A DNA stretch of 24,000 nt from Desulfobacterales bacterium. GTDB taxonomy: Bacteria > Desulfobacterota > Desulfobacteria > Desulfobacterales > UBA11574. The position numbers were made by a program, and so were the translations under genes. The number at the start of each line of letters is the position of its first letter. Within the stretch, counting starts at the first letter, position 1. A model generated the notes under the pieces. That model had not been told where the DNA came from, made no database searches, and worked only from the letters and a program-made list of their open reading frames with translations. Location of the stretch: the NCBI GenBank assembly GCA_032127815.1, contig JAQBHK010000368.1, positions 7,779 to 31,778 of the forward strand. The letters are read 5' to 3'. Below are positions 3,365 to 22,597 of this stretch, piece after piece.

Positions 3365-3427
3365 AAATATAAAAGACCCTTTCAGGGTTGCTATTAAGCC
3401 ACCCTTATTAGGAGTGGTATTTGATTG

Positions 3428-4030
3428 ATGACTGACAATTACGCCAAAATTGTTCGCAGCAATCTCGAAAAACTATATCTTAACCTGCCGCCGGATCTGG
3501 CCCGGGAATTACCTGCCCGGCAAAGCGGGGAGCGGTTTGAATTTGACGCTTTCGGCGCACAATGTGAGATCCGGCCGGATGGGATCTTGCTGGATACAGA
3601 GCCGCAGGGCGGACCGGTCGGGATTCTGCTCTCGCTGTACGCCCTGGGCGCCCAAAACGAACTTTGTGTGCCGGAGCCTTTTAAAGCCTTCAAGAATTTC
3701 CCCGACAGCATGCCCTATGCCGCGGCCTTTGTCACCCACACCCAGCAAATTATGGTACCTTATGTCGAGAATATCGAGAAAAACCATGGCCACATAATGG
3801 AAAATCTGAAGGGCCGGGCGGCGCCGTCCGGGGTGGGCGGTGATTTTGCATTTGTGGTTTATCCTTTGCCCAAAATTGCCCTGTGCTATATTTTTTACAT
3901 GGCCGATGATGATTTTCCGGCTTCGGTTACCTGTCTTTATTCCAGCAACGCCCGACAGTTTTTGACGGTTGACGCCTTGGCCGATGTGGGGGAATATACC
4001 TCTAAAAAAATCATAGATCTTAGTAAATAA
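3428..4030 (+). CDS. DUF3786 domain protein
   Basis: ATG at 3428 (the track TTG at 3425 is one codon upstream), with AGGAGTGG RBS. The pattern FDAFG..C.I, central F..F...P....Y..AF and C-terminal GD..F.V.P....IF...DDDFP.S matches my recollection of the DUF3786 family. Only 14 nt separate it from the response regulator gene. Confidence 0.6.
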   Translation: MTDNYAKIVRSNLEKLYLNLPPDLARELPARQSGERFEFDAFGAQCEIRPDGILLDTEPQGGPVGILLSLYALGAQNELCVPEPFKAFKNFPDSMPYAAAFVTHTQQIMVPYVENIEKNHGHIMENLKGRAAPSGVGGDFAFVVYPLPKIALCYIFYMADDDFPASVTCLYSSNARQFLTVDALADVGEYTSKKIIDLSK

Positions 4031-4044
4031 GGCGTGGAAAACGT

Positions 4045-4773
4045 ATGCCTCAAGCGTCTGGAAAAACCGTTCTGGTTATCGAAGATGACCGCAACACGGC
4101 CGATCTTATCGCTCTCTACTTGGAGCGTGAAGGTTTCCGGGCTCTGACGGCCGGTGACGGCGAAGCCGGTTTGGCTTTGGCCGAGCAATACCGGCCGGAT
4201 CTGGTCGTCCTGGACCTGATGCTCCCGAAAATAGACGGATGGGAGGTCTGCCGGCGCCTGCGAAAGAGATCCGAGGTGCCGGTCATCATGCTCACGGCCC
4301 GGGGCGAAGAGATAGACCGGGTGGCCGGACTCACCCTGGGGGCCGACGACTACGTAGTGAAACCCTTCAGCCCCCGGGAACTGGTGGCGCGCGTCAAGGC
4401 TGTTTTGAGGCGGGTTCCCCGTCCGGATGCCGCCGCGAAAACGCTTCTCTCCCACGCCGATGTGGTCCTGGATCTGGAAAAGCGCAGGCTGAGCGTTGCG
4501 GGTCGGCCGGTCTCCCTTACTCCCCATGAGTACGCTCTATTAGAGGCTCTAATGTCCGCTCCGGGCAGGCTTTTCACCCGGGACGAAATGCTGAACCACC
4601 TCTATCCGCGGGGCGAAGCTGTCGTGATCGACCGCGTGGTGGACGTTCACATTGGAAAGCTCAGGCAGAAAATCGAACCGGAACCGTCCGATCCCCGTTA
4701 TATCCTGACCGTACGCGGCGTCGGGTACCGGTTTGCAGACCGGCAATCCCAGCGCATGGAGCCCCCCCGATGA
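4045..4773 (+). CDS. OmpR/PhoB-family response regulator
   Basis: Receiver domain (VLVIEDD, DLVVLDLMLP, VIMLTA, KPF) plus winged-helix output (LTPHEYALLEAL, VDVHIGKLRQKIE, TVRGVGYRF). Its stop overlaps the kinase start (ATGA at 4770-4773). Confidence 0.92.
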   Translation: MPQASGKTVLVIEDDRNTADLIALYLEREGFRALTAGDGEAGLALAEQYRPDLVVLDLMLPKIDGWEVCRRLRKRSEVPVIMLTARGEEIDRVAGLTLGADDYVVKPFSPRELVARVKAVLRRVPRPDAAAKTLLSHADVVLDLEKRRLSVAGRPVSLTPHEYALLEALMSAPGRLFTRDEMLNHLYPRGEAVVIDRVVDVHIGKLRQKIEPEPSDPRYILTVRGVGYRFADRQSQRMEPPR

Positions 4774-5843
4774 AACGGTATCTGATCATCAAGCTGCTGG
4801 CCGTCAACTTGGCGGTGATCGGTTTTGTTATGGTGATTGTGTGGCTCTCCATCGATACCCTGGCCGCGGGATACTTTGTCACGCTCATGGAAAAGTACAA
4901 CATCTCGCCTGAGCCGGCGCATGCCATGTTTATCAGTGCCGTACACCGCTACCTGCTCTGGGCCTGCCTTGCGGCTGTAATTCTCGCCGTAATACTCAGT
5001 TTCGTGATGATGCGCAGGGTTCTGGCTCCCTTGACCCGCATGACCGCGATCTCCCGGGAAATTGCCGCCGGCAACTTTGCCGTCCGGGTTCCGGCCGACA
5101 CCGAAGATGAGGTGGGCCAGCTCGCCCGGGCCTTTAACCGCATGTCTGTGAGCCTGGAGAAGCTCGAGAACCTGCGGCGCACCCTGATGATCGACGTGGC
5201 CCACGAGCTTCGTACTCCCCTGACCAACATCCAAGGATACCTGGAAGCTCTCAATGACGACGTGCTGCCCCCTTCGTCCAAAATCTTCGCCCTGCTTCAG
5301 GATGAGACTCTGCGGCTGGCTCAGCTTGTGGAGGACGTGCTGCAGCTCGCCCGGGCCGATGCGTCCCACGGCAATTTGCACCGCGATCCCACGGACCTGA
5401 AGGAGGCGGTCAACGCCGCCTTAGAGACCTTTGCCCTCACATTTACCCAAAAATCCGTTACCATAAGCATTCACGCTCCGGATGGCCCGTTGACGGTGCC
5501 GGCCGACCGGGACCGCATCGCCCGTGTCCTGCGGAACCTGACCGACAACGCCGCCCGCTACACGCCCCCCAACGGGGAGGTAAAGATCCTGATTGAACCC
5601 GGTTCCCGGCAGGTTCGCATCGTTTACGTCAACAACAGCGGGGAGCTTATCCCCGAGGACCTGCCTTACATTTTCGAGCGCTTTTACCGCGGGGAAAAAT
5701 CTCGTTCCCGGCAGCACGGCGGTGCCGGCATCGGCTTGTCCATCGTCAAGGAACTGGTCGAGGCCCATGGCGGCACGGTCGGCGCCGAACTGGTCGAAAG
5801 TAATATCCGCATCTGGTTTGAGCTTCCCATGGACCTTTCTTAA
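4770..5843 (+). CDS. HAMP-domain sensor histidine kinase with a very short extracytoplasmic loop
   Basis: Two N-terminal TM segments flank a loop of about 30 aa. HAMP region, H-box DVAHELRTPLT, N box LTDNAARYT, G boxes GGAGIGLSIVKELVEAHGG. Confidence 0.9.
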   Translation: MKRYLIIKLLAVNLAVIGFVMVIVWLSIDTLAAGYFVTLMEKYNISPEPAHAMFISAVHRYLLWACLAAVILAVILSFVMMRRVLAPLTRMTAISREIAAGNFAVRVPADTEDEVGQLARAFNRMSVSLEKLENLRRTLMIDVAHELRTPLTNIQGYLEALNDDVLPPSSKIFALLQDETLRLAQLVEDVLQLARADASHGNLHRDPTDLKEAVNAALETFALTFTQKSVTISIHAPDGPLTVPADRDRIARVLRNLTDNAARYTPPNGEVKILIEPGSRQVRIVYVNNSGELIPEDLPYIFERFYRGEKSRSRQHGGAGIGLSIVKELVEAHGGTVGAELVESNIRIWFELPMDLS

Positions 5844-5950: not shown

Positions 5951-6109
5951 GAACGGTCACCTTAAATCTTTACCAAATCTTTACAGTATCTTTATACGCC
6001 CTTCATCCTGCTGTCTTATATTCCGTACAGGGAAAAATCGAACGCCGGTCTTTACTAGGACCGAATGCGTATTATTCTAAATCATGTTCACAAAAAGTGG
6101 AGGTGTCTC

Positions 6110-7297
6110 ATGAAAACCTTAAATATTACGATCATCGTCCTGGTAGCGGTACTGTTGGGCTACCACCAGGTCAGCAGCAGGGATGGAAATATGGAGGAAA
6201 AGATGAACGATAAACCCCAAAAGACTCAAACGGCTGTCTTTGCCGGCGGCTGTTTTTGGTGCACGGAATCTGATTTTGAAAAAATAGAAGGCGTGTTCGA
6301 GGCCATCTCAGGCTACACCGGCGGTCGCCAGGCCAATCCCACCTACCGCCAGGTTTCCGCAGGCGGCAGCGGGCACATTGAGGCCGTCAAGGTGGTTTAC
6401 GATCCGGACAAGATTACCTACGAGGAACTGCTCGAGGTGTTTTGGAGGCACGTGGATCCCACGGATGCCGGGGGCCAGTTCGTGGACCGGGGCTCTCAAT
6501 ATCGCAGTGCCATCTTCTATGCCAACGAGCAGGAGAAGCGCCTGGCCGAGGAATCCAAGAAACGCCTGGAAGCCACGGGCCACTTCGGCAAGCCCATCGT
6601 ATCCGATATTTTGCCGCTGGGTCCCTTTTACACGGCAGAGGAGTATCACCAGGATTACTACAAAAAAAAACCGATTCGCTATCACTATTACCGCTCCGGC
6701 TCCGGCCGGGAACAGTTTTTGGAAAAGGCATGGAAAGACATGCAGTCCGGGATGAAGGATGAGATGCAAAAGACAGCAATGACCGCGGACCCGATGAAAG
6801 AGGAAGTGGGCGGCGGCATGTCACCAAAGATGGATACCGGCATGAAAAATGCCGGCGGAATGTACACCCTGCCCGATGACGAGGAACTGCGCCGGAGGTT
6901 AACACCCATGCAGTACAAGGTAGCGCGGCAGGACGGCACCGAGCCGCCCTTTAACAACGAATACTGGAATAACCACCAAGCGGGCCTTTATGTGGACATT
7001 GTCTCGGGCGAACCGCTCTTCAGCTCCACGGACAAGTTCGATTCTAAAACCGGCTGGCCGAGCTTCACCCGGCCTCTGGTTCCGGAGAATGTTGTCCAAA
7101 AGTCTGACCGGAGTTTTTTCATGACGCGCACCGAGGTGCGCAGCAAGTATGGCGACTCGCACCTGGGGCACCTGTTCAACGACGGGCCTGAGCCTACGGG
7201 CCTGCGTTACTGCATTAACTCGGCCGCTCTGCGGTTCATTCCCAAGGCGGACCTTGAAAAGGAAGGCTACGGGAAATATCGGAAGCTGTTTGAATGA
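6110..7297 (+). CDS. msrAB: Exported bifunctional methionine sulfoxide reductase MsrA-MsrB fusion
   Basis: ATG at 6110 preceded by a GTGGAGG RBS; the track start at 6065 lacks an RBS. N-terminal hydrophobic signal or anchor [18 protein letters not shown]. MsrA active site GGCFWC. MsrB block [15 protein letters not shown], without the zinc CxxC pairs. Confidence 0.9.
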
Positions 7298-7853: not shown

Positions 7854-8045
7854 ATGAGAACAACGCTTGATTTACCTGAAGATTTATTAGATGAGGCTAT
7901 GAAAGCTACCCAAATTAAGACAAAGACCAGAGTCATAATCACAGCCTTGGAAGAATTAATTAGAAAGTCAAAAATTTCAGAGTTAAAAGAATTTAAAGGA
8001 AAAGTTGATTTGGACATTGATTTAGACACTATCAGAGGGCGTTAA
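7854..8045 (+). CDS. vapB: VapB-type antitoxin (MRTTLDLPEDLL class, DUF2191-like)
   Basis: ATG at 7854 with a GAGGGGG RBS; the track start at 7833 lies inside the operator. The N-terminus MRTTLDLPEDLLDEAMK is typical of this antitoxin class. Its stop overlaps the PIN gene start (TAATG at 8043-8047). Confidence 0.75.
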   Translation: MRTTLDLPEDLLDEAMKATQIKTKTRVIITALEELIRKSKISELKEFKGKVDLDIDLDTIRGR

Positions 8046-8425
8046 TGCCGGTATTAGTCGACACTTCAGTGTGGATTGAGTATTTCAGAAGTGGAAACAA
8101 TTCTGAAAAACTCGATTTCTTAATTGATGAAAATCTCCTTGTAACAAACGATCTTATTTTGGCAGAACTAATACCATTCCTAAAAGTTCAAAACAAAAAA
8201 ATTATTATCGATTTATTGCTTAATATCAAAAAATTAGGTTTGTCTATAAATTGGAAGCAAATCATTGAGTATCAATACAAATGCCTAAAAAATGGTTTGA
8301 ATGGTGTTAGTATACCGGATCTTATAATTGCCCAAAACGCAAAACAAAATCATTGCGAAATTTACTCTCTGGACAATCATTTTAGCCTAATGAAGGATAT
8401 CATTCATCTTCAGATACAAATATAA
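8045..8425 (+). CDS. vapC: PIN-domain ribonuclease toxin VapC
   Basis: 126 aa. Acidic PIN residues sit in the expected contexts: VLVDTSV, LILAELI, IPDLIIA, SLDNHF. Coupled to the upstream antitoxin. AT-rich: my hand counts are 23/60 and 16/60 G+C on two sampled lines. Confidence 0.85.
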   Translation: MPVLVDTSVWIEYFRSGNNSEKLDFLIDENLLVTNDLILAELIPFLKVQNKKIIIDLLLNIKKLGLSINWKQIIEYQYKCLKNGLNGVSIPDLIIAQNAKQNHCEIYSLDNHFSLMKDIIHLQIQI

Positions 8426-8517
8426 GCTGAAGACACACCGAGCAAACGCTTTCACTGCGATTTTCCGGATCATTTCTTTGTGCGTAAGAATATGCTGAAT
8501 ATAAACCCGATTTGTGC

Positions 8518-8564
8518 TTGACAACAACTCCCAGCGGTTGCATAATGGTTTCACAATGGAACCA
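8518..8564 (+). promoter_or_regulatory. Sigma70-type promoter and operator for vapBC-2
   Basis: TTGACA (8518-8523), 17 nt spacer, CATAAT (8541-8546). An imperfect inverted repeat TGGTTTC..GGAACCA (8546-8564) follows, ahead of the AGGAGG RBS. Confidence 0.5.
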
Positions 8565-8579
8565 TTAGGAGGTGTTTGT

Positions 8580-8822
8580 ATGGCAACGGTAACGGTAAAG
8601 AATATACCTGATGAACTTTACGATCGGCTTAAGTCAGTCGCAGAAATAAATCGGCGTTCCATCAATAGCGAGATTATCATGTGCATTGAAAATGCTGTTG
8701 TAAGTCACCGAATAAACCTCGACGAGGTGCTTGAGAATGCTCGTCAGCTCCGTCAATTGACAGCCGAACATCTGATAAGTGATGAGGAATTCAATCAGGC
8801 AAAAGCAGAAGGTCGGCTATGA
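8580..8822 (+). CDS. vapB: Ribbon-helix-helix (Arc/FitA-like) antitoxin
   Basis: ATG at 8580, 7 nt after AGGAGG. MATVTVKNIPDELYDRLKSVAEINRRSINSEII is the typical RHH N-terminus. ATGA overlap with the PIN gene at 8819-8822. Confidence 0.75.
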   Translation: MATVTVKNIPDELYDRLKSVAEINRRSINSEIIMCIENAVVSHRINLDEVLENARQLRQLTAEHLISDEEFNQAKAEGRL

Positions 8823-9220
8823 TTGTCGTTGATACAAATGTTATCGGCTATCTTTTTCTATCAAGCGAGCAATCTTTTTTAGCCGAACGTGCCCTACAAA
8901 AGGAGAATGAGTGGGCCGCACCGATTTTATGGCGTAGCGAATTTTGCAATGTACTAACTCTTTATATGCGCAAAAATATCATTAAGTTGGAGCAAGCTCA
9001 GCGCATAATGAATAGTGCGTTGAAATTATTGAGGGGTCGAGAATATGAGGTTCCGTCATATGAAGTTCTGAGGCTTGCCTCAACAAGCAAATGTTCTGCT
9101 TATGATTGTGAGTTTATCGCTACTGCAAATGATCTGAAAGTCCCCTTAGTAACTGTTGATAAGCAGCTGCTGCGTGAGTTTTCTTCAGTGGCCGTATCAT
9201 TGAATTCGTTCAGCGAATAA
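8819..9220 (+). CDS. vapC: PIN-domain toxin VapC
   Basis: 133 aa. MIVVDTNV, conserved acidic positions (SAYDCEFIA, VTVDKQL). Translationally coupled to the RHH antitoxin. Confidence 0.85.
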   Translation: MIVVDTNVIGYLFLSSEQSFLAERALQKENEWAAPILWRSEFCNVLTLYMRKNIIKLEQAQRIMNSALKLLRGREYEVPSYEVLRLASTSKCSAYDCEFIATANDLKVPLVTVDKQLLREFSSVAVSLNSFSE

Positions 9221-9615: not shown

Positions 9616-10386
9616 ATGGATGGTCAGATAGAAAGGCTTCTAGAAGCTCTCGAAAAACACTGCCGCCTTGTTACGATGCCTGTGGCGATCAAGTTAGCCA
9701 AAAAAGGCGAGGCTCCTATGGAGAAGACCAAATATCCTCTTGAGCATATTGGAAATCGTTTAGCCGTTTGCCAGGGCATGACCATCGCAAGGACGTTCGG
9801 TTGGACGATGGCTTTTAGAAAGGACGACCATGCTTGTCCATTGCCCCGCGTTTTTATGGGACACATAAGTCCGGACAAATTCTTGGAAGGAACTGTCGCT
9901 GGATTCTATCAGGATGAATCTGAATGCATGAGGAAAATGGAGACTTCATATCCGAGATGGCCAATGGATTCCTTTCAAGAAATTTGGTTGTCTCCGATTA
10001 ACAAGTGTGAATTTGTCCCTGATTTAGTTGTTGCCTACGGGAGCCCAGCCCAGATACTTACGCTGATCCAGGGGGGCAATTATAGAGTCGGATCAGGGAT
10101 TAAGTCCATAAGTAGTGGTCGCTGTGGCTGTTCCTCATGGATAGCTGGAGTCCCCCAAACTGACGAATGCACCTATATGATTCCCGGTCCAGGAGAAAGG
10201 ATATTTGCCGGAACGCAGGACTACGAGATGTCTTTTGCTGTGCCTTATTCCAAGTTCGATCAGGTAATTGATGGCTTGAAGTATGTCCACGGTCACGGTT
10301 CTTATAGATATCCTGTACCGAATTTGGGCGTGTTGGCAGAACCACGAATACCTGAAAGATATCATGAAATCGAATCAGATACGTAG
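9616..10386 (+). CDS. DUF169 family protein (COG2043-like)
   Basis: 256 aa with AAAGGAG RBS. Family-typical blocks: VAIKL, CQG..IAR, conserved Cys-rich SGRCGCS and IPGPGERIFAGT. Confidence 0.8.
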   Translation: MDGQIERLLEALEKHCRLVTMPVAIKLAKKGEAPMEKTKYPLEHIGNRLAVCQGMTIARTFGWTMAFRKDDHACPLPRVFMGHISPDKFLEGTVAGFYQDESECMRKMETSYPRWPMDSFQEIWLSPINKCEFVPDLVVAYGSPAQILTLIQGGNYRVGSGIKSISSGRCGCSSWIAGVPQTDECTYMIPGPGERIFAGTQDYEMSFAVPYSKFDQVIDGLKYVHGHGSYRYPVPNLGVLAEPRIPERYHEIESDT

Positions 10387-12382: not shown

Positions 12383-14011
12383 ATGTTTTGTTATCAATGT
12401 GAACAAACCGCCAAAGGTACGGGGTGCACAATACAGGGTGTTTGTGGTAAACAGCCCGAAGTCGCCGCCTTGCAGGACTTGCTCATTTATGCACTCATGG
12501 GACTCTCCCAGGTTGCTGTGGAAGGTCGCAAAGTGGGCGTCTTGGACCCGGACGTCAATGCCTTCACCGTAAAAGCCGCCTTTGCCACTTTGACAAATGT
12601 GGATTTTGACCCTGATCGTTTTATGGATTTGATCGGCCAGGCCGCGGACAAGCGTGAAAAATTAAAAGCAAGTGTTACCGCCGCCGGCGGCAATGGGGTT
12701 TGGCCTGACGGACCTGCAACCTTGGCACCCAAAGCCACCTTGGACGATTTGGTCAAGCAAGGCGAGCAGGTCGGAATAAAATCGTATCCGGCCGACAACC
12801 CGGACATCCTTTCATTGAAGCACACCGTACTGTACGGCATTAAGGGCGTGAGCGCTTATGCGGACCACGCCCTGATTTTAGGGCAGGAGGATGACAGCGT
12901 TTATGCATATGTCCATGAAGGACTGGCTGCCATTCAAAGAGATGATCTGGGGATAGACGACTGGGTGGGGATGGCTCTCAAATGCGGTGAAGCAGCCTAT
13001 AAAGCCATGGAACTGCTCGATGCCGGCAATACGAACACATACGGCCACCCTGTGCCGACAAAGGTTCCGCTGGGCTACAAGAAAGGCAAAGCCATCCTTG
13101 TCTCCGGTCATGATTTGAGAGATCTCGAAGAACTGCTCAAGCAGACTGAAGGAAAAGGCATTAACATCTACACCCATGGTGAGATGCTCTCAACCCACGG
13201 TTACCCCGGATTAAAGCAATATTCGCATTTCTACGGCCAATTCGGTACGGCCTGGCAAAAGCAGATCAAAGAGTTCGCGGCTTTTCCAGGCGCTATTCTG
13301 ATGACCACCAATTGCATTCAAAGGCCCAAAAATGACTATAAAGATAATATATTTACCAGCGGCATGGTCGGCTGGCCGGGCATTCCCCACATACCGGACC
13401 TGAATTTTCAGCCGGTCATCGATAAAGCCCTTGAACTTGGCGGCTTTGAAAAAGACCACGTCGACCAGGAGGTCACGGTCGGCTTTGCCCGTAATGCCGT
13501 GCTCGGTGTCGCGGACAAGGTGATCGAGGCGGTCAAGTCCGGTGCCATTCGGCATTTCTTTCTGGTGGCCGGTTGCGACGGAGCCAAGCCGGGACGGAAT
13601 TACTATACTGAGTTTGTAGAAAAGATTCCCGCAGATTGCATTGTTTTGACCCTGGCGTGCGGCAAATATCGTTTTTTCGACAAAGAGCTTGGCGATATCG
13701 GCGGCATACCGCGCCTTCTGGATGCCGGACAGTGCAATGACGCCTACTCGGCCGTTCAGATCGCTTTGGCCTTAGCAAAGGCATTCGATGTTAAGGTCAA
13801 TGAATTGCCGTTATCAATGATCATTTCCTGGTATGAGCAAAAAGCGGTTTGCGTCCTGTTGGCCCTGCTTCATCTCGGTATCAAGGGTATCCGCCTGGGG
13901 CCGTCGCTGCCGGCGTTTTTAACGCCCAATGTTCTGGAAACCCTGGTGAAAAATTTTGACATCAAACCGATTTCTACGGCTGACGAGGACCTGAAAGCCA
14001 TTCTGGGATAA
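12383..14011 (+). CDS. hcp: Hybrid cluster protein / hydroxylamine reductase
   Basis: ATG at 12383, 6 nt after GGGAGG; the track start at 12356 is upstream of the RBS. N-terminal cluster motif MFCYQCEQTAKGTGCTIQGVCGK, and full-length collinearity with the roughly 540-550 aa Hcp architecture. Confidence 0.93.
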   Translation: MFCYQCEQTAKGTGCTIQGVCGKQPEVAALQDLLIYALMGLSQVAVEGRKVGVLDPDVNAFTVKAAFATLTNVDFDPDRFMDLIGQAADKREKLKASVTAAGGNGVWPDGPATLAPKATLDDLVKQGEQVGIKSYPADNPDILSLKHTVLYGIKGVSAYADHALILGQEDDSVYAYVHEGLAAIQRDDLGIDDWVGMALKCGEAAYKAMELLDAGNTNTYGHPVPTKVPLGYKKGKAILVSGHDLRDLEELLKQTEGKGINIYTHGEMLSTHGYPGLKQYSHFYGQFGTAWQKQIKEFAAFPGAILMTTNCIQRPKNDYKDNIFTSGMVGWPGIPHIPDLNFQPVIDKALELGGFEKDHVDQEVTVGFARNAVLGVADKVIEAVKSGAIRHFFLVAGCDGAKPGRNYYTEFVEKIPADCIVLTLACGKYRFFDKELGDIGGIPRLLDAGQCNDAYSAVQIALALAKAFDVKVNELPLSMIISWYEQKAVCVLLALLHLGIKGIRLGPSLPAFLTPNVLETLVKNFDIKPISTADEDLKAILG

Positions 14012-14341
14012 TGTCTCCAAAAGAGTTGATACCTGAATCTTGCAAAGGATTGCCGACGAACAGGTTTTTAATTTGATTTATAATTAGTTACTGTTTATAG
14101 TACGGTTCTTAAATCGTAAACCTAAGTTGAGCAATTTTTTACTCGATCTTCACCGATCTCTTGCGCATAAAGGCTTTGCAAAAATCCTCGACATATCCAC
14201 GGGTATGCACCCCAGGGCATTTCCTGCGGGGCACCTGCGGTTTGTGCAAACCTTTCTGCATCAAGATCTTGGAACATATCTTCGCAAAAATCGCTCAACT
14301 CAGGTTAAACACTTTCTTTTAAAACCAAACATATTTCATTG

Positions 14342-15625
14342 ATGAATTCAAAAGAAAGCACGAAGAATTCCGGCCTGCCTGACCCCGGCGAAGGCGGATT
14401 GATTGCCTGTCATGAATGCGATTTTCTGCACAGCAAGCCGCCGATTCCGAAAGGGGGGAAAGCGCTTTGCACCCGATGCGGGGCGTTCCTGTATCAGAAC
14501 ATCCCCAACAGTCTTGAAAAGGTTCTGGCATTGAACCTGGCCGCGTTGCTGCTCCTGATCATGGCCAACGTCTTCCCCTTTGTTTCCCTGAAACTAAGCG
14601 GCCGTGTCGAGACCAACGTTTTGATCTCCGGCGCTCTGGCAATCTACCGTCTGGGCATGCGCGAGGTGGGCGTTTTGGTGCTTCTGACGAGCTTCATATT
14701 CCCCTTTTTGACCATCACGGGGATGCTGTATATCCTTTTTCCCCTGACATTTGGACACCGGCCCTGGAAAATGGCCCCGGTCTATCGACTGGTTCAGGCC
14801 CTGGCACCATGGAGCCTGCTGGGGGTCTTTATGCTCGGCGTCCTGATCGCCATCGTCAAACTGCTCGACCTTGCCACCGTTATCCCGGGTATTTCTCTCT
14901 ATTCATTTGTGGGACTTATGGTGGTATCGGCCGCGGCCAACGCCAATCTGGATGCGTCTCTGCTCTGGCCGCCCATGAGGCTCGAACCGACGGGAAACCA
15001 ATCGGGGGACACGGCGGCCAAACGCGGCCTGATCGCCTGCCACACGTGTGCGCTTCTCGTTCCCGAAACAGGTCAAAACGACCACGGACACGGCGTCTGC
15101 CCCCGCTGCCAAAGCCCGCTCCACAGCCGCAAAGCCAACAGTCTTACGCGGACCTGGGCCCTCATCTGCGCCGCCGCCATTCTTTATATCCCGGCCAACG
15201 TCTACCCGGTCATGACAGTGATTCAATTCGGTCGGGGGAATCCGAATACCATTCTGATCGGCATTGTTCACCTGATTGAAAGCGGCATGTGGGGGCTTGC
15301 CATGATCATTTTCTTTGCCAGCATCGTGGTTCCGGTCCTGAAACTGACTGTGCTCTCCTTTCTCTTGATCACGATTCAGAAAAAGTCTTCGTGGCGTTTC
15401 CGGGATCGCGCCCTCCTCTTTCGCGTCATCGAAGCCGTGGGAGCATGGTCTATGGTAGATGTTTATGTTGTTGCCATTCTGGCCGGACTGGTTAACCTCG
15501 GTGCCCTGTCGACCATCCGACCCGGCATCGGTGTATCGTTCTTTGGCGCTGTGGTAGTTATCACGATGTTCGCTGCCCGCGGCTTTGATCCCCGACTCAT
15601 TTGGGACCATAAGGAAAGACCATGA
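14342..15625 (+). CDS. pqiA: PqiA-family integral membrane protein (two PqiA repeats with zinc-ribbon-like CxxC pairs)
   Basis: About 427 aa. Duplicated architecture GLIACHECDFL..CTRCGA and GLIACHTCALL..CPRCQS, each followed by multiple TM helices. The stop overlaps the pqiB start (ATGA at 15622-15625). Confidence 0.88.
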   Translation: MNSKESTKNSGLPDPGEGGLIACHECDFLHSKPPIPKGGKALCTRCGAFLYQNIPNSLEKVLALNLAALLLLIMANVFPFVSLKLSGRVETNVLISGALAIYRLGMREVGVLVLLTSFIFPFLTITGMLYILFPLTFGHRPWKMAPVYRLVQALAPWSLLGVFMLGVLIAIVKLLDLATVIPGISLYSFVGLMVVSAAANANLDASLLWPPMRLEPTGNQSGDTAAKRGLIACHTCALLVPETGQNDHGHGVCPRCQSPLHSRKANSLTRTWALICAAAILYIPANVYPVMTVIQFGRGNPNTILIGIVHLIESGMWGLAMIIFFASIVVPVLKLTVLSFLLITIQKKSSWRFRDRALLFRVIEAVGAWSMVDVYVVAILAGLVNLGALSTIRPGIGVSFFGAVVVITMFAARGFDPRLIWDHKERP

Positions 15626-17322
15626 TAAAAGATCCCCATACAGAACCAGACGCAGACGCAACGGCTCCTGCACCCAAGATCAAGAAAAAGTCCGGACCGT
15701 CTATAGTGTGGCTGATACCGCTGATTACCGCCATTATCGGTGGTTGGCTCATCTTCAAGACAATCTCGGAAAAGGGACCGGAAATTACCATCACCTTCAA
15801 AACAGCGGAAGGGATCGAGGCCGGAAAGACCAAGATCAAGTACAAGGAGATTGAGATAGGGGTGGTGGACTCGGTGCATTTTAGCAAGGACTTCTCCCAC
15901 ATCATTGTGAAGGCCGGTATGGAAAAGGAGTCAGCGTCATTCCTTCGGCGTGACACCCGCTTCTGGGTGGTCAGGCCCCAACTCACCCTGCGTGGTGCAT
16001 CGGGCCTCGGTACTTTGCTTTCGGGAGCCTATATCGAGATCGAGCCGGGTCAGGGGGCATACCATAATCGTTTTGCCGGGCTTGACGTCCCGCCGGTGGT
16101 CAAAGCCGAAGTGGCGGGGAAAAAAATCCTGCTCATGGCCAAAAAGCTGGGCTCCATCGGCAACGGTTCACCTATCTACTATCAGGGGATTCTGGCCGGT
16201 GAAATTCTCGGGTGGGAGCTTGGAAACGACCGCAAGAGTATTTTTCTGCATGCCTTTATCAAAGCGCCCTATGATGAGCTTGTTCGGAGCAATACCCGCT
16301 TCTGGAATGTGAGCGGAATGAACGTTTCCGTAGGGGCGGACGGTATTATCGTGCGAACGGAATCGGTCCAGTCTCTTCTTTATGGGGGGATCGCTTTTGA
16401 TACCCCGGAGACGCTTGAACGGGTAACGGAGGATGTGGAAGGCCTGGTGTTCACCCTTTATGACAGTCTTGAGAGCATTCATGAGGAGGCGTTCAGCAAG
16501 AAGATTAAGTTTATTCTTTTCTTTGACGGTTCTGTTCGGGGCCTGAACGTAGGCGCTCCTGTTGAGTTCAAGGGGATCAAGGTCGGATCGGTGAAAGACG
16601 TTCGCCTGGAATTCGACAAACGCAACACCTCCTTTCGGATTCCGGTTCTGATAGAGATCGAACCCGAACGGGTCATCGCGCGAGGCCAAGATGAGGACAC
16701 ATCTCCATACGAGACCTTAAAAAATCTGGTCTACCGTGGCTTGCGCGCCCGGTTACAGACCGGCAGCCTCCTCACCGGGCAGCTGTTCGTGGAGCTTGAC
16801 ATGCATCCCGGCACCCCTATCCGGCTGGCGAACGAAGAGGTACCCTTTCCGGAGCTGCCCACCATTCCGGCCGAACTGGAACAGATGACCACATCGGTTA
16901 AAAGTATCCTCGCCAAGCTGGAAAAAGTGGACATGGAAAAGATCGGCGCGGAACTCATAGGGAGCCTTCAGGGGGCGCAACAACTGATCACCAATCCGGG
17001 ACTTAGGGACTCCGCCAACGATCTGAAGGAATCTTTGCTTGCGTTCAAAAGTATCCTGCGCAAACTGGATCAGCGTGTCGAACCGATTGCGGTGAATCTG
17101 GAAAAAGCCATTGGGGCCGGTCATCAGGCGTTGGAAGAAACCCGGGTCACATTGGGTTTGATTGACGAAGTTCTCAAACCCGATTCCCCCATTCAATACA
17201 ATTTTGGACAGTTAACCGAGGAGTTGGCCGAGACGGCCCGTTCCATACGTACCCTTGTGGATTTGTTAGAGCGAAATCCCAACGCTATTATTTTCGGCAA
17301 GGATTCTCCAGGAGGGGAATGA
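15622..17322 (+). CDS. pqiB: PqiB-family MCE-domain protein (multiple MCE domains plus C-terminal helical region)
   Basis: 566 aa. N-terminal TM (IVWLIPLITAIIGGWLIF). Repeated MCE-type blocks (GIEAGKTKIKYKEIEIGVV, SIGNGSPIYYQGILAGEI, GLNVGAPVEFKGIKVGSV). Long helical C-terminus. Confidence 0.88.
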   Translation: MIKDPHTEPDADATAPAPKIKKKSGPSIVWLIPLITAIIGGWLIFKTISEKGPEITITFKTAEGIEAGKTKIKYKEIEIGVVDSVHFSKDFSHIIVKAGMEKESASFLRRDTRFWVVRPQLTLRGASGLGTLLSGAYIEIEPGQGAYHNRFAGLDVPPVVKAEVAGKKILLMAKKLGSIGNGSPIYYQGILAGEILGWELGNDRKSIFLHAFIKAPYDELVRSNTRFWNVSGMNVSVGADGIIVRTESVQSLLYGGIAFDTPETLERVTEDVEGLVFTLYDSLESIHEEAFSKKIKFILFFDGSVRGLNVGAPVEFKGIKVGSVKDVRLEFDKRNTSFRIPVLIEIEPERVIARGQDEDTSPYETLKNLVYRGLRARLQTGSLLTGQLFVELDMHPGTPIRLANEEVPFPELPTIPAELEQMTTSVKSILAKLEKVDMEKIGAELIGSLQGAQQLITNPGLRDSANDLKESLLAFKSILRKLDQRVEPIAVNLEKAIGAGHQALEETRVTLGLIDEVLKPDSPIQYNFGQLTEELAETARSIRTLVDLLERNPNAIIFGKDSPGGE

Positions 17323-17963
17323 TGATGCTTTCATTTTTAAGAATCCGGTTGGTTTTGGTTTTTGTGCTGGCGGGCGGCTTCTTGACCGGTTGTGTGACGG
17401 CAACCACCCCGGCTACCCGATTCTACGTCCTTAATTCTCTGACTCCCGGTGCCGGTCTTTCCCGTGACGCCGGCCTGAACGGCGAGCTGTCCGTGGAGGT
17501 CGCCTCGCTGCGCTTGCCCCAGTACCTGGAAAGACCACAGATCGTTACCCGGAGCAGCGGAAACCGTCTGGAACTGGCGGAACTTCATCAGTGGGGAGGG
17601 AACCTGAGTAAGAATATGATGAGGGTCCTCGCAAAAAACTTTTCCCAGTTTCTTGACACCCCCAACATCGCTATCTCCCCCCGTCGCCCGTTAATTCCCC
17701 CTGATTTTCTCGTTGAATTGGAGGTGATGCAGTTCGAAAGAGACTCCCATGGACAGGTGCGGCTCTCCGTCCAGTGGCGCTTATCGCGCGGAAAGGATCG
17801 AATGCCTCTGGCAACCCATATGACCGATCTCGCGAGTGCAACGGTGCCCGCGGGCCCGGATTTCGAGCATACGGTGTCGGCTATGAGTACTCTTTTAGGC
17901 GAATTGAGCCAAATCATCGGCCTAGAGATCGTGAAAAACGTCAACAGGAGATCCGATCCATGA
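17319..17963 (+). CDS. pqiC: PqiC/YmbA-like lipoprotein (ABC-type transport auxiliary component family)
   Basis: 214 aa. Lipobox FLTGC, then RFYVL..LPQYLERPQIVTR typical of the family. ATGA overlaps on both sides (17319-17322 and 17960-17963). Confidence 0.75.
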   Translation: MMMLSFLRIRLVLVFVLAGGFLTGCVTATTPATRFYVLNSLTPGAGLSRDAGLNGELSVEVASLRLPQYLERPQIVTRSSGNRLELAELHQWGGNLSKNMMRVLAKNFSQFLDTPNIAISPRRPLIPPDFLVELEVMQFERDSHGQVRLSVQWRLSRGKDRMPLATHMTDLASATVPAGPDFEHTVSAMSTLLGELSQIIGLEIVKNVNRRSDP

Positions 17964-18913
17964 GCTGGAAGAGGATGTCGCGTCGACAGGCGGGTTTAAC
18001 GGCAAACCGATGGCCGCACACCCGGCTGCCCGGGATTCTTCTGATCCTGGGGCTGCTTTCCCTTCCGGTCTTTTCCAAATCGCTTTTAGCCGATGAGACA
18101 TGGACAGGACGGACCATCATGGATGAGGCTTTCAAACGTCATGAACTGTTCCCTTACGTCTTTGAAAAACAGACCATGATCCTAATCGACAGCGCGGAGA
18201 ACCGCGACGTCAGGAAGGCGCGTCGTTTCTCCAGGGTGGAACCGGATGCAACGGTCAAATATCTTCTGATCTTCGACCACCCGGCCGAGATCCGCGGCGT
18301 CGCACTGCTGGCGATTCGTCACCCATCCGGTCGGATAGAAAGCAAGATCTATCTGCCCGCGTTCGGAAAGGAACTGAAATCCACTGCGGGGAAAAGCAGA
18401 GGCAATCATTTTTTGGGCACCGATTTTGCTATCGAGGACCTTACGGCGGAGGTTTTATCGGATTTTCGTTACGTCCGAAAGACGGATGACAAGATCGGAA
18501 AGTTCCTCTATTTCGTCGTTGAAGCCTTTCCAAAGGATCCGGAGATCGAAAGAGATACGGGTTACGGCTTGCGTCGACACTTTATTCGACAGGACATCTT
18601 TTACATTGTTCGTACCGATTACTATGATCCCCGCGGACGGTTTTTGAAACGCCGAACCTGCCACGATCTGAAAATGGTGGGTGGTACCATGTGGCGCGCC
18701 AATATGATCCTTATGGAAAACAACAAAGAACAGCATAAAACGTTGATCAAAATTAACCAGAGAGTTTTTTCCCATGATTACGTACCCCCGGAAATGTTTA
18801 CTTCTGAATGGCTTTTAGAGAACCGACACGTTCAGAGCACTGAAAAGCGTCTTTTTCAGGACACTTTTGAATCTTTGGGGGAAAATGATACCGAGCTTAA
18901 AGATAGCCCTTAG
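17960..18913 (+). CDS. Exported LolA-like outer-membrane lipoprotein-sorting family protein
   Basis: I place the start at ATG 17960, which overlaps the pqiC stop; the track start at 17774 lies inside pqiC. Signal peptide LPGILLILGLLSLPVFSKSLLA. The motif IYLPAFGKELKSTAGKSRGNHFLGTDFAIEDL matches the LolA-like family usually found beside MMPL/RND exporters. Confidence 0.6.
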   Translation: MSWKRMSRRQAGLTANRWPHTRLPGILLILGLLSLPVFSKSLLADETWTGRTIMDEAFKRHELFPYVFEKQTMILIDSAENRDVRKARRFSRVEPDATVKYLLIFDHPAEIRGVALLAIRHPSGRIESKIYLPAFGKELKSTAGKSRGNHFLGTDFAIEDLTAEVLSDFRYVRKTDDKIGKFLYFVVEAFPKDPEIERDTGYGLRRHFIRQDIFYIVRTDYYDPRGRFLKRRTCHDLKMVGGTMWRANMILMENNKEQHKTLIKINQRVFSHDYVPPEMFTSEWLLENRHVQSTEKRLFQDTFESLGENDTELKDSP

Positions 18914-18947
18914 CCAATCTTTTAGATAAAAATTAAGATAGCCGATT

Positions 18948-21749
18948 ATGTTTTCCCGATTTATCATGCTGGGAGTCAGCCGCCGCTTGGCCACGCTATT
19001 ATTCTTGGTGATGGTGACATGCATCACCGGGTTTGGCCTGCCCAAGCTCCGCATAGACACCGGCTTCAATAGTCTGATCTCGAGCACCGACCCGGACAAG
19101 CCGATTTACGATCGGATCGCCCGGGAGTTCGGCTCAGACAACTGCACCATCGTCTACGTTCGGGACAAGGCGCTCTGGTCGCCGGATAAGTTGGCCGCCT
19201 TAGAGAAGCTGCACTACCAACTGGAGGGGCTCGATTTCGTGGAACGTGTGGACGACCTTTTCAGTTTGCGCAGTATCCGGGGGGCCGGAGGAAAAATAGA
19301 CTCCCGTATTTTTCTGCCGAAAGCCCCCACCGACCAGGCCGCCATCGATCAAGCCAGGGCTGACGCGCTTTACAATCCTCTCATTGAGGGTAACTTTGTA
19401 TCCCGCGACGGAACCGTGACGGCATTACTGGTTTCCGTGCGAGAAGACCGGGAAGACGTCAGCTTCGACCGTCGGGTCAACCAAGCCCTGGAACGGATTC
19501 TCACACCGGCGCGATCCGTTTTCCAGGAGGTGTTTCAAGTCGGCCCGCCCCGCATCAACGCGGAGCTCAAATCCATACTCCTGGATGATCTCATGAAACT
19601 GGGTCCGCTGTCGGCTTTCGTTCTCGTAGCGGCGATCCTCTTTTTCCTTCGCAGCGGGTTTGCCGCATGGGTACCTCTGGCCACCTCAGGCCTCAGCATC
19701 GCATGGACTTTTGGAATGATGGGTTGGGCCGGCATTCCGCTCAACATTCTGAGTGCCATGTTACCCACCCTGGTCGTGGTCATCGGTTCCACCGAGGACA
19801 CCCATATGATGTCGTCCTATTTCCACGGCGTCTCCCAAGCCAAAGAGGACCACCGTGGTTTCGCCACCCACTGTATGATGAGACATTTGGGAGTGCCGTT
19901 GCTCTTGACCATCCTCACCACGGCGTTGGGCTTTGCGAGCAACATCTTCAGCAGCATCCGGCTCATTCAACACTTTGCCATTGCTGCCACCTTTGCGATT
20001 CTGGCAAACGGAATGATCACCATACTGTTTGTCCCCATGGTTTTAAGCGTCATGGGCCCTCTCCGGACCGGGCTCTTTCAAGGCGGGAATCGGGTGTCCG
20101 GTCTGCCAAAATTGTTTGTCCGGATGTTCGGCTTTACAAAACGCCGTTTTCCACGCTCGATCCTGGTGGTGACGGCCATTTTATGCGCCTTCTTTGTTTA
20201 CCAACTCTCCAAACTGTATGTCACCAACGATCCCTTGTCCTATTTTCAAAAGGACCAGCCGCTTATCCGGGACACCCAACGGATCCACCAGGACTTGTCC
20301 GGCTTGAAGATATTCTTTATTACCTTAGAGTCTGACCAGGAAAAGGCGTTTCAGGTGCCCAAAAACATTGAAAAACTGGTCGCCATCCAGAAGTTTCTAA
20401 AGCAACAGGGGATATTTGATCGAAGCATATCTCTGGCCGACCACCTCTCCCTTGTCAACCGCGAGTTTCACGGGGGTAACCCCGAGTACTTTACGGTGCC
20501 GAAACGGCGTAAGCTCGTCGCCCAGTACCTGCTCTTTTTTCATCGCCGGGATCTTGAAAGTTACGTCAGCCATGATTTTCGGCGTGCCAACATTGTGGTT
20601 CGACACAACGTCAGCGATTCCAATACCCTGAACCGTTACATAGGCGAGCTCAAAGAAGTGGTATCAAACATCGCCGGGGGCCAAATGAATGCTCACGTGG
20701 TCGGTGAAAACCTGATGATCAACGCTGCCGCCGAAAGCCTTATGGTGGCCCAGGTTAAATCCCTGGCCATTCTGCTTTTCGTGATCTTTTTAATAATGTC
20801 GGCCATGTTTACCTCCTTCAAAGGCGGGATCATCTCCCTCATTCCCAGCCTGATCCCCATCATTCTGATGTTCGGCGTTATGGGGCTTTTGGAGATTCCT
20901 TTGAATCCGGGCACCGCCATGGTGGCGGTCATCGCCATCGGCATCGCCATTGACGGGACCATCCACCTTTTTTCCCGCTACATCGAACTATGCCGGCGAA
21001 CCTCCGATTACGAAGAAGCGGTGAACATCACGGTTCAGGAAGAGGCCACGCCCATGGTCGCCACCAGTCTGGCCCTGGCATTGGGGTTCGGCGTCCTCAT
21101 CACGTCCAATTTTACCGTAATTGCACAGTTCGGCGCCTTGTCCGCCGCCACCATGCTTTTTTCAATCTTCGCCAACCTTTTAATCACCCCGATCATCATG
21201 TTGAGAATCCGTTTGGTTGGTCTCCACCAGATCCTGGCCTTGTCCATGCATAAAGAGGTCCTTGAAAAAAGCCCGCTCTTTGTGGGCATGTCCAACTACC
21301 AGATGCGCAAGGCCATCCTGATATCGGAATCGCAAGAGTTTGCGGAAGGGGAACTGCTGGTGGAGCAGGGAACGGTGGGACGGAAAATGTACCTGATCTT
21401 GTCCGGTCAAGTCGATGTCGTGCGTCGCAGCGAGAACAAATCCAAAAGCGTTGCGGTCCTGAAAGCGGGAGAGGTTTTCGGCGAGATCGGATACATAAGA
21501 GAGGCCCACCGAACCGCCGACGTTCGGGCCTTGACCCGGGTGGAGGTCCTGCGGTTCGATTATAAAAAACTCAAAAAAGACCTTAAGTTTTTTCCCCACA
21601 TCGTCGCCAATCTCAACTTTAATATCAGCTGCATTCTCGGCGAGCGCTTGGCCGACGTGATGGATGTGATGGACGGGATGGGACCTCAGCCGGAAAAAGA
21701 GAAACACGCTGCACCTGAGCCGTCCGGAGATAAAGAGCCCCTCGATTAA
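18948..21749 (+). CDS. MMPL/RND-superfamily (COG1033-type) exporter fused to a C-terminal cyclic-nucleotide-binding domain
   Basis: 933 aa. Two pseudo-repeats, each a large periplasmic loop followed by a TM bundle (GSTEDTHMMS and AIGIAIDGTIHLFSRY blocks). A C-terminal region of about 170 aa carries FGEIGYIREAHRTADVRA, a CAP/PKA-type phosphate-binding cassette. Confidence 0.85.
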   Translation: MFSRFIMLGVSRRLATLLFLVMVTCITGFGLPKLRIDTGFNSLISSTDPDKPIYDRIAREFGSDNCTIVYVRDKALWSPDKLAALEKLHYQLEGLDFVERVDDLFSLRSIRGAGGKIDSRIFLPKAPTDQAAIDQARADALYNPLIEGNFVSRDGTVTALLVSVREDREDVSFDRRVNQALERILTPARSVFQEVFQVGPPRINAELKSILLDDLMKLGPLSAFVLVAAILFFLRSGFAAWVPLATSGLSIAWTFGMMGWAGIPLNILSAMLPTLVVVIGSTEDTHMMSSYFHGVSQAKEDHRGFATHCMMRHLGVPLLLTILTTALGFASNIFSSIRLIQHFAIAATFAILANGMITILFVPMVLSVMGPLRTGLFQGGNRVSGLPKLFVRMFGFTKRRFPRSILVVTAILCAFFVYQLSKLYVTNDPLSYFQKDQPLIRDTQRIHQDLSGLKIFFITLESDQEKAFQVPKNIEKLVAIQKFLKQQGIFDRSISLADHLSLVNREFHGGNPEYFTVPKRRKLVAQYLLFFHRRDLESYVSHDFRRANIVVRHNVSDSNTLNRYIGELKEVVSNIAGGQMNAHVVGENLMINAAAESLMVAQVKSLAILLFVIFLIMSAMFTSFKGGIISLIPSLIPIILMFGVMGLLEIPLNPGTAMVAVIAIGIAIDGTIHLFSRYIELCRRTSDYEEAVNITVQEEATPMVATSLALALGFGVLITSNFTVIAQFGALSAATMLFSIFANLLITPIIMLRIRLVGLHQILALSMHKEVLEKSPLFVGMSNYQMRKAILISESQEFAEGELLVEQGTVGRKMYLILSGQVDVVRRSENKSKSVAVLKAGEVFGEIGYIREAHRTADVRALTRVEVLRFDYKKLKKDLKFFPHIVANLNFNISCILGERLADVMDVMDGMGPQPEKEKHAAPEPSGDKEPLD

Positions 21750-21820
21750 CCGCTATAAAATATTTTTGCTAAAATACTATAATCGGCATTTCCATGGAAA
21801 AATCCATTTGTGGACGGTAA

Positions 21821-22597
21821 CTATCTCAGGAGTTGAAAGTACCAGTAAATAAGGCTCTGGCCGAAGAAAATATAGGTAACGGCGCCGATGGCCAGAAACG
21901 GGCCGAAGGGGACGGCAAATTTCATATTTTTACCTTTGGCCAGCATGACCGTCAGGCCAACCACGGTTCCCACGGCAGATGAAACGAAAATTGTGAACAG
22001 CACGCCTTTCCAGCCGACAATGGTTCCGATCATTGCCAAAAGCTTTATATCGCCGCCCCCCATACCTTCCTTGCGAGTCAAAAGATGATAAACCCAGGCT
22101 ACAATGAAAAGGCTTCCGCCTCCGGCCAGCAAGCCCAGGGCAGACTCTTTAAACGTAACTCCCGGCAGAGCTAAAGAAGCGATGAGGCCGATTGGAATTC
22201 CGGGGATTGAAATCACATTCGGTATGATCTTGTGGTCTATATCGATAAAGGTTATGACTAAAAGTACGGCGATGAATACAAAATATATAAGGCCTTCAAG
22301 GGTTAAACCAAAGGCAAAAAAGGCGCTGGCGGCAGCGAGACCGGCCAGCGTTTCAACCAAAGGATAGCGCCAGGATATCGGTTCACTGCAGTGGCGGCAC
22401 CTGCCTTTCAGCCACAGATAACTTAAGACAGGAATATTATCGTAATACTTTATCGTGTTATCACAGCTGGGACATGCTGAACGCGGGGGGTCGGCAATAG
22501 ATTTTTCAAGTGGAAGCCGGTAAATGCAAACGTTCATAAAACTTCCGATGCACATACCGAATAAAAAAATATAAATTACAAGAAATATATTAGACAT
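21821..22597 (-). CDS. pilD: Type IV prepilin peptidase / N-methyltransferase (A24 family)
   Basis: 258 aa. N-terminal CPSCDNTI...CRHC zinc motif. Two catalytic Asp contexts (ITFIDIDHKIIPN and GMGGGDIKLLAMIG). Confidence 0.9.
   Translation of the reverse strand: MSNIFLVIYIFLFGMCIGSFMNVCIYRLPLEKSIADPPRSACPSCDNTIKYYDNIPVLSYLWLKGRCRHCSEPISWRYPLVETLAGLAAASAFFAFGLTLEGLIYFVFIAVLLVITFIDIDHKIIPNVISIPGIPIGLIASLALPGVTFKESALGLLAGGGSLFIVAWVYHLLTRKEGMGGGDIKLLAMIGTIVGWKGVLFTIFVSSAVGTVVGLTVMLAKGKNMKFAVPFGPFLAIGAVTYIFFGQSLIYWYFQLLR

Follow-up and report, generated by a model that had tools for sequence, protein, structure and literature searches.

A recurrent five-gene envelope cassette joining PqiABC to a LolA-like carrier and an RND pump with a predicted cyclic nucleotide-binding domain

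Introduction

Why should a PqiABC-type lipid bridge be encoded in one string of genes with a LolA-like protein and an RND pump? The question is raised by a contig of a Desulfobacterales bacterium (assembly GCA_032127815.1, contig JAQBHK010000368.1), of which we analysed a stretch of 24,000 nucleotides (nt), hereafter the window. An earlier note on this DNA, made from the letters alone, had read positions 14342-21749 as a single operon of pqiA, pqiB, pqiC, a LolA-like gene and an MMPL/RND exporter gene, and had suggested that the products form a composite lipid-trafficking machine. We find the same five genes together in more than 120 uncultured bacteria of several phyla, and we consider that they probably act as one functional unit, whose pump carries a cyclic nucleotide-binding domain (CNBD).

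Results

The five genes and their products

The open reading frame (ORF) listing of the window gives five ORFs on the + strand over 14342-21749, the last of which includes the CNBD:

14342-15625, + strand: pqiA, a LetA/PqiA-type inner-membrane transporter of 427 amino acids (aa); Pfam PqiA, PF04403, in two stretches, 2e-88
15622-17322, + strand: pqiB, three MCE domains and a C-terminal helical region, 566 aa; Pfam MlaD, three stretches, 1e-36
17319-17963, + strand: pqiC, an outer-membrane lipoprotein of the PqiC/ABC_trans_aux family, 214 aa; Pfam ABC_trans_aux (PF03886), 8e-30
17960-18913, + strand: secreted LolA_like (PF17131, TP_0789-like) periplasmic carrier, 317 aa; Pfam 7e-33
18948-21749, + strand: MMPL/HAE3-type RND lipid pump (residues 1 to about 760) with a C-terminal CNBD, 933 aa; Pfam MMPL, Sterol-sensing, Patched and cNMP_binding
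21333-21575, + strand: core of the CNBD, pump residues 796-876, with the phosphate-binding cassette FGE...RTA; PF00027, 6e-20

Inspection of the letters places these genes exactly as the earlier note had them: start and stop codons overlap in an ATGA at 15622-15625, 17319-17322 and 17960-17963, and 34 nt separate the stop of the LolA-like gene (18913) from the ATG of the pump (18948). Shine-Dalgarno-like motifs stand 5' of pqiB (AAGGAAAG), pqiC (AGGAGGGG) and the LolA-like gene (AGGAG). A spacer of 330 nt separates the unit from the gene of a hybrid-cluster protein (hcp), which lies upstream and ends at 14011; on the downstream side comes a convergent prepilin peptidase gene (21821-22597). The note had considered that an internal promoter or terminator might part pqiABC from the LolA-like/RND pair; terminator- and promoter-like sites within the five-gene unit are in no excess over shuffled sequence, and no terminator was found between the two modules. 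An Rfam search of 13900-22000 at E<=1 gave no match.

The domain calls of the note stand for all five proteins, each above its Pfam gathering cut-off. PqiA also exceeds the cut-off of TIGR00155 (292.8 against 260.35) and aligns end to end with Escherichia coli LetA (chain 9N8W_A, 3e-56), keeping the CxxC zinc-ribbon pairs. The polar network described for the transmembrane domain TMD-C of LetA (PMC13017536) is kept at seven positions of seven: K178, D181, S321, K328, S364, D367 and T402. PqiB is predicted to carry a helical needle region C-terminal to its three MCE domains, and matches both PqiB (5UVN, 4e-87) and LetB (1e-98) in the PDB. PqiC has the lipobox L-T-G-C at residues 22-25, and a profile built from 28 PqiCs of the cassette retrieves E. 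coli PqiC (8Q2C, 6e-16). The scores nevertheless fall below the NCBIfam equivalog cut-offs set on the E. coli proteins, with 279 bits against 562 for PqiA, 467 against 525 for PqiB (NF008070, over residues 19-561) and 23 against 200 for PqiC. By these scores the PqiABC of the window is of the same family as the E. coli proteins and not their equivalog.

The LolA-like call, at 114 bits for a cut-off of 30, is confirmed, like that of PqiC, by profile matches in the PDB, and further by fold search. The profile of its homologues matches 3BK5 at 2e-30, and its AlphaFold2 (AF2) model (pLDDT 78.7) reaches Foldseek TM-scores of 0.92 to 3BK5 and 0.90 to LolA3 of Porphyromonas gingivalis (9TP6). Canonical LolA structures match it weakly (TM-score 0.3-0.36), and the five-gene unit holds no LolCDE or LolB genes. 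Of the characterised paralogues LolA3 is the closest in structure, and it does not bind LolB (PMC13103446). The protein has a Sec-type signal peptide and no lipobox cysteine, nor is a lipobox present in any of 34 homologues.

For the last gene, the earlier note was right to read an MMPL/RND exporter (PF03176, 1e-29, 103.6 bits for a cut-off of 20.5) and overlooked the C-terminal CNBD. The match to TIGR00921 (HAE3) runs end to end over residues 13-751 with 193.8 bits, below the cut-off of 351.9, so that the pump is best described as MMPL/HAE3-like. Its AF2 model (pLDDT 85.7) finds MmpL4/5, MmpL3, HpnN and NPC1 as best folds. In 53 cassette pumps the motifs GSTEDTH of transmembrane helix 4 (TM4) and GIAIDGTIH of TM10 are near-invariant, and the acidic residues E283, D284 and D669 are invariant. 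The CNBD scores 71.5 bits for a cut-off of 27.5 and has as best PDB sequence match the CNBD of the SthK channel (2e-15); G845, E846, R855, T856 and A857 show little or no variation, and the FGE...RTA cassette is kept in 50-52 of the same 53 pumps. A domain placed after TM12 should, from the topology of RND proteins, be cytoplasmic. The conservation of cyclic nucleotide-binding and proton-relay motifs makes both ligand binding and proton coupling plausible in this pump. The CNBD-fused pumps form a much wider family than those of the cassette alone. Among the best 150 cluster representatives, about 120 have alignments that run through the CNBD, at identities as low as about 29%. At E<=1e-10 the pump has 782 homologues, and at E<=1e-5 the LolA-like protein has 468.

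Recurrence of the cassette

The earlier note had proposed a survey of gene neighbourhoods. We made two, and the adjacency of pqiC, the LolA-like gene and the MMPL gene proved widely conserved and not a singularity of this genome. In the LolA-like-anchored scan, the homologue alignment (A1) was run against one genome per bacterial species, which gave 63 loci, and gene content was called by tblastn with the window proteins. Wherever the contig reaches, PqiA, PqiB, PqiC, LolA-like protein and RND-CNBD are encoded colinearly on one strand, with one exception. The converse test was anchored on PqiC: the alignment of cassette PqiCs (A2) was run against metagenome contigs and the best 80 of 249 matches were kept. 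Among these best 80, 67 loci continue downstream for 400 nt or more, and in 63 of them the LolA-like gene adjoins pqiC; 42 continue for 1.5 kb or more, and 38 of these have both the LolA-like and RND genes. These frequencies are upper estimates. In all informative loci of both scans the LolA-like gene is followed by the RND gene.

The closest relative is Candidatus Desulfatibia vada, with 93-97% protein identity, by which the window is assigned to Desulfobacterales. As labelled in the records, the 63 loci belong to Thermodesulfobacteriota, Nitrospinota, Gamma- and Zetaproteobacteria and Magnetococcales, and further to Planctomycetota (an anammox planctomycete), Verrucomicrobia, Gemmatimonadota and Bacteroidota; several of the genomes are labelled "uncultured Enterobacteriaceae", probably a mislabel. 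All 63 species-representative genomes are metagenome-assembled (MAGs) or single-amplified (SAGs), mostly from marine or sediment lineages, and none of them is a cultured isolate, which limits genetics. Pumps of Nitrospinota are 75-78% identical to that of the Desulfobacterales window, and such high identities of membrane proteins across phyla suggest that the whole cassette has spread laterally. Context look-ups extend it to pumps of 59%, 37% and 34% identity, where the junctions called are 4-nt overlaps. In one related locus (L144, 10675-14165) a convergent MlaE-MlaF-MlaD operon lies directly downstream of the cassette, so that two MCE systems adjoin.

Because the five-gene arrangement recurs in related loci, it exceeds what chance would give. 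At the four junctions, surveyed in 143 related loci, 69/77, 95/99, 101/118 and 92/108 cases have a start codon from -30 to +30 nt of the preceding stop, with starts picked computationally as the best-case choice. The genes of the LolA-like protein and the RND pump, 34 nt apart in the window, overlap by 4 nt in 58 of 108 loci, the usual form outside Desulfobacterales. The only large interruption between pqiC and the LolA-like gene in the genome scan is found in a Verrucomicrobia-labelled MAG (L041, 4472-5593), where 1.1 kb without any gene-like ORF of at least 60 aa separates the two.

Over 50 loci, pairwise comparison of the distance matrices of the five proteins gives a Mantel r of 0.90-0.95 (p = 0.001). 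Between the Pqi proteins and the LolA-like/RND pair r is 0.90-0.93, and within each module 0.94-0.95, the highest value (0.95) being that of the LolA-like protein with the RND pump. The flanking genes, on the other hand, vary by lineage. All-versus-all clustering of the flanking ORFs revealed no sixth conserved gene, the largest cluster comprising 11 loci with generic response regulators. Among the 115 nearest neighbours, a Pfam census met 131 families, of which the commonest (FHA) occurs in 7, and in that census no nucleotide cyclase or mobile-element gene was found.

Exceptions and distant relatives

In a Nitrospinia MAG (L010, 130-11650) the LolA-like/RND-CNBD pair stands without PqiABC. 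There it is preceded by five tandem genes for GT4 glycosyltransferases, perhaps a sign that the cargo is a glycolipid, and followed by an msrAB fusion gene. A more distant relative (L147, 271-6058; pump identity 29%) encodes a DUF1302 outer-membrane protein, a LolA_like protein and a CNBD-RND pump, a layout like that of AmeABCD. With DUF1302 in the slot that PqiABC occupies in the cassette, the pair of LolA-like protein and RND pump would seem to be the older module, and the element directly upstream of it looks interchangeable, a DUF1302 barrel in one lineage and PqiABC in the cassette clade.

Another relative (L146) has a stand-alone CNBD-RND; the unannotated 263-aa protein encoded after this pump was considered as a diverged carrier and rejected, with an hhalign probability of 0.25% against the LolA-like profile. 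In L149 (7725-11156) the pump ends in a degenerate CNBD-like tail and is followed by STAS and anti-sigma-kinase-like genes, which suggests that partner switching controls this pump in place of a cyclic nucleotide.

Leader region and surroundings

Two features lie between hcp and pqiA:

14036-14121, + strand: conserved upstream block, likely the promoter/leader of the operon; 96.5% identity over 86 nt with L001 and L012
14122-14305, no strand: insertion of 184 nt in the 5' leader, resembling a miniature inverted-repeat transposable element, with terminal inverted repeats of about 20 nt

In L001 and L012, the two closest relatives, the sequence that flanks the block differs. The block contains a sigma-70-like site, TTGATT-17-TATAGT at 14073-14101 (9/12 match). 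The 184-nt insertion, whose inverted self-match covers 21 nt at 90%, is missing from both relatives, where the block abuts the start region; neither the rest of the window nor the retrieved loci showed a second copy. L001 has an insertion of its own, of about 235 nt (8903-9136), between the LolA-like gene and the pump, and 280-420 nt separate hcp from the block in L001 (3808-4225) and L012 (3640-3917). The intergenic spots of the operon thus seem to collect small insertions.

Elsewhere in the window (3425-5843 and 9616-10386) are genes for a DUF3786 protein, an OmpR-type response regulator, a HAMP histidine kinase and a DUF169 protein, those of the regulator and the kinase overlapping by 4 nt; a stretch of low GC content (0.375) covers 8001-9000. 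An msrAB fusion gene (6065-7297) lies 7 kb upstream of the unit. A link of msrAB to the cassette, considered since such a gene also comes directly after the pump of L010, was dropped because the neighbour census showed no recurrence.

Discussion

We think it probable that the five genes form one functional unit which traffics a hydrophobic component of the envelope, most likely a membrane lipid. The composite unit envisaged in the earlier note is supported by the co-inheritance of its parts, by the lack of any other conserved adjoining gene in our surveys and by the presence of DUF1302 in the PqiABC slot of one sister system. What the sequence shows is a complete PqiABC bridge, a secreted carrier of LolA fold, an RND pump of lipid type whose acidic proton-relay motif is intact, and a CNBD whose phosphate-binding cassette is intact too. 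From these parts we infer a mechanism, including its cargo and direction. Cytoplasmic cAMP or cGMP would bind the CNBD and switch the pump, which would lift the cargo from the inner membrane at the expense of the proton motive force and pass it to the LolA-like carrier. PqiABC, anchored at the outer membrane through PqiC, would be the trans-periplasmic and outer-membrane-proximal leg, as acceptor or donor of the carrier. Alternatively PqiABC might provide a passive counter-flow that re-equilibrates bulk phospholipid while the pump drives the net flux.

A stronger version, that the five proteins build a physically integrated trans-envelope machine in which the cyclic-nucleotide-gated pump energises lipid extraction and the carrier docks on the PqiC ring or the PqiB needle, there filling or emptying the MCE tunnel, we regard as unlikely. 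If true, it would be an energised MCE bridge under second-messenger control, and would explain how a PqiA-type MCE system transports directionally without an ATPase.

Several observations weigh against a single unit. The LolA-like/RND junction is loosest precisely in the window and its Desulfobacterales relatives, at 34-243 nt. The best sigma-70-like match of the region (TTTACA-17-TATGAT, 10/12) is located at 18600-18628, inside the LolA-like gene and 320 nt 5' of the pump start; such sites are as numerous as expected by chance, and this one could let the pump be transcribed separately. Four loci (L077, L081, L082 and L106), with PqiBs 55-68% identical, have PqiABC without the pair and unrelated genes after pqiC, and the pair of L010 is the reverse case. 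E. coli PqiABC functions without LolA-like or RND partners. Since all loci come from MAGs, SAGs or metagenomes, with taxa as given in the record titles, the taxon labels are unverified; and the peptide patterns used to retrieve the loci derive from proteins of the cassette itself, which biases the frequencies upward. Slot substitution, finally, is argued from one locus, L147.

A rival reading is that two independent envelope systems are merely co-transcribed, PqiABC equilibrating phospholipids and the pair exporting an unrelated hydrophobic compound from a promoter shared because both serve envelope maintenance or stress responses. The modules are indeed apart in the few loci just named, each is self-sufficient elsewhere, and the looser LolA-like/RND junction of Desulfobacterales agrees with such a reading. 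Yet the five colinear, overlapping genes stay together in at least seven phyla, as labelled, and at pump identities as low as 34%, with all flanks changing, and co-regulation alone seldom preserves such colinearity; besides, the distance correlations across modules nearly equal those within them. We therefore hold mere co-transcription to be rather unlikely, and favour the single functional unit. It is quite improbable that the LolA-like protein serves PqiABC as a soluble lipid shuttle between the PqiC ring and the outer membrane, the pump being only genetically linked. The 4-nt overlap of its gene with pqiC in the window would fit this role, as would the unresolved passage of lipid from the PqiB needle and PqiC ring into the outer membrane (PMC13631591), but the pairing of LolA_like with MMPL proteins is an ancestral and general association, the strongest correlation of all joins the carrier to the pump, and their genes overlap in more than half of the loci.

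Very improbable, in our opinion, is a tolerance to solvents or toxic hydrophobes in which pump and carrier expel a membrane-active xenobiotic, with PqiABC only repairing damage to the outer membrane. The model for it is AmeABCD, which does confer monoterpene tolerance and whose DUF1302 partner recurs beside one distant CNBD-RND relative (L147). No catabolic or xenobiotic genes are conserved near the cassette, however; the best structural matches of the pump are lipid transporters and not HAE1 drug pumps, and neither the housekeeping-like conservation in marine lineages nor the predicted cyclic-nucleotide gating suggests a niche xenobiotic.

Comparison with known systems

All component families of the cassette are known, and its five-gene architecture and the CNBD-RND fusion are in no paper that we found. 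The earlier note was aware of no characterised example of the combination, and our literature searches likewise brought up no paper describing PqiABC with LolA-like and MMPL partners. Searches on CNBD and RND found none describing CNBD-fused RND pumps, and a 2023 review of transporter regulation names CNBD fusions for MFS transporters and none for RND (PMC10710835).

HpnN and MmpL-type pumps extract lipids from the inner membrane using proton motive force. With HpnN, MmpL3 and MmpL4/5 the window pump shares the fold of 12 transmembrane helices and two periplasmic domains (Foldseek TM-score 0.6-0.8) and the acidic residues of TM4 and TM10; it is only 12-16% identical to them, and none of them has a C-terminal CNBD.

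The closest characterised system combining a LolA-superfamily protein with an HAE3 pump is AmeABCD of Castellaniella defragrans, made of a DUF1302 outer-membrane protein, a DUF1329 protein of the LolA superfamily, a COG4447 protein and an HAE3 RND, and conferring the tolerance to monoterpenes mentioned above (PMC6394551). Both systems place a LolA-superfamily gene beside an HAE3-type RND gene, with an outer-membrane-side partner in the operon. They differ in that the carrier of the window is of PF17131 and not DUF1329, that its pump has a CNBD, and that PqiABC stands where DUF1302 and COG4447 would be: neither a DUF1302 barrel nor a COG4447 protein is encoded among the five genes or their window neighbours, and DUF1302 appears only in L147, whose DUF1302, PF17131 and CNBD-RND make it an intermediate between the two layouts.

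ApeL, ApeM and ApeN, a LolA-like protein, an RND transporter and a LolB-like protein, are proposed to localise a specialised lipid, aryl polyene, to the outer membrane (PMC8253772). The pairing of a LolA-like chaperone with an RND transporter is common to both systems; by contrast the only outer-membrane lipoprotein of the cassette is PqiC, and neither the window nor the conserved neighbours include a DUF3261 LolB-like lipoprotein or an adjacent biosynthetic cluster.

A precedent for MCE systems assembled from recombined modules is Mpc of Brucella, a chimeric Mla-Pqi system (PMC12436622). As described there, Mpc combines Mla and Pqi parts and differs from the cassette in having no RND pump, LolA-like carrier or CNBD.

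The E. coli pqi operon ends after pqiC. The window cassette shares with it the gene order A-B-C, the two zinc ribbons and LetA-type polar network of PqiA, the three MCE domains and C-terminal helical region of PqiB and a PqiC lipoprotein matching 8Q2C, and differs from it by two further, translationally chained genes. PqiABC alone bridges both membranes and is reported to exchange phospholipids only passively and in both directions (2026 preprint, bioRxiv 10.64898/2026.09.15.751761), and how LetA and PqiA might be energised was left open in the LetA study (PMC13017536). While cargo range, direction and energy source are thus unsettled for PqiABC, the cassette joins this bridge to a soluble carrier and to what looks like a lipid pump driven by protons and fitted with a cyclic-nucleotide sensor. 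This natural experiment makes it testable whether active and passive lipid routes are paired, whether LolA-like carriers can work together with MCE bridges or take the place of outer-membrane barrels, and whether cAMP or cGMP gates envelope lipid flux post-translationally; compared with PqiABC alone, the CNBD on the pump would add a regulatory layer and points to signal-gated lipid transport in the envelope.

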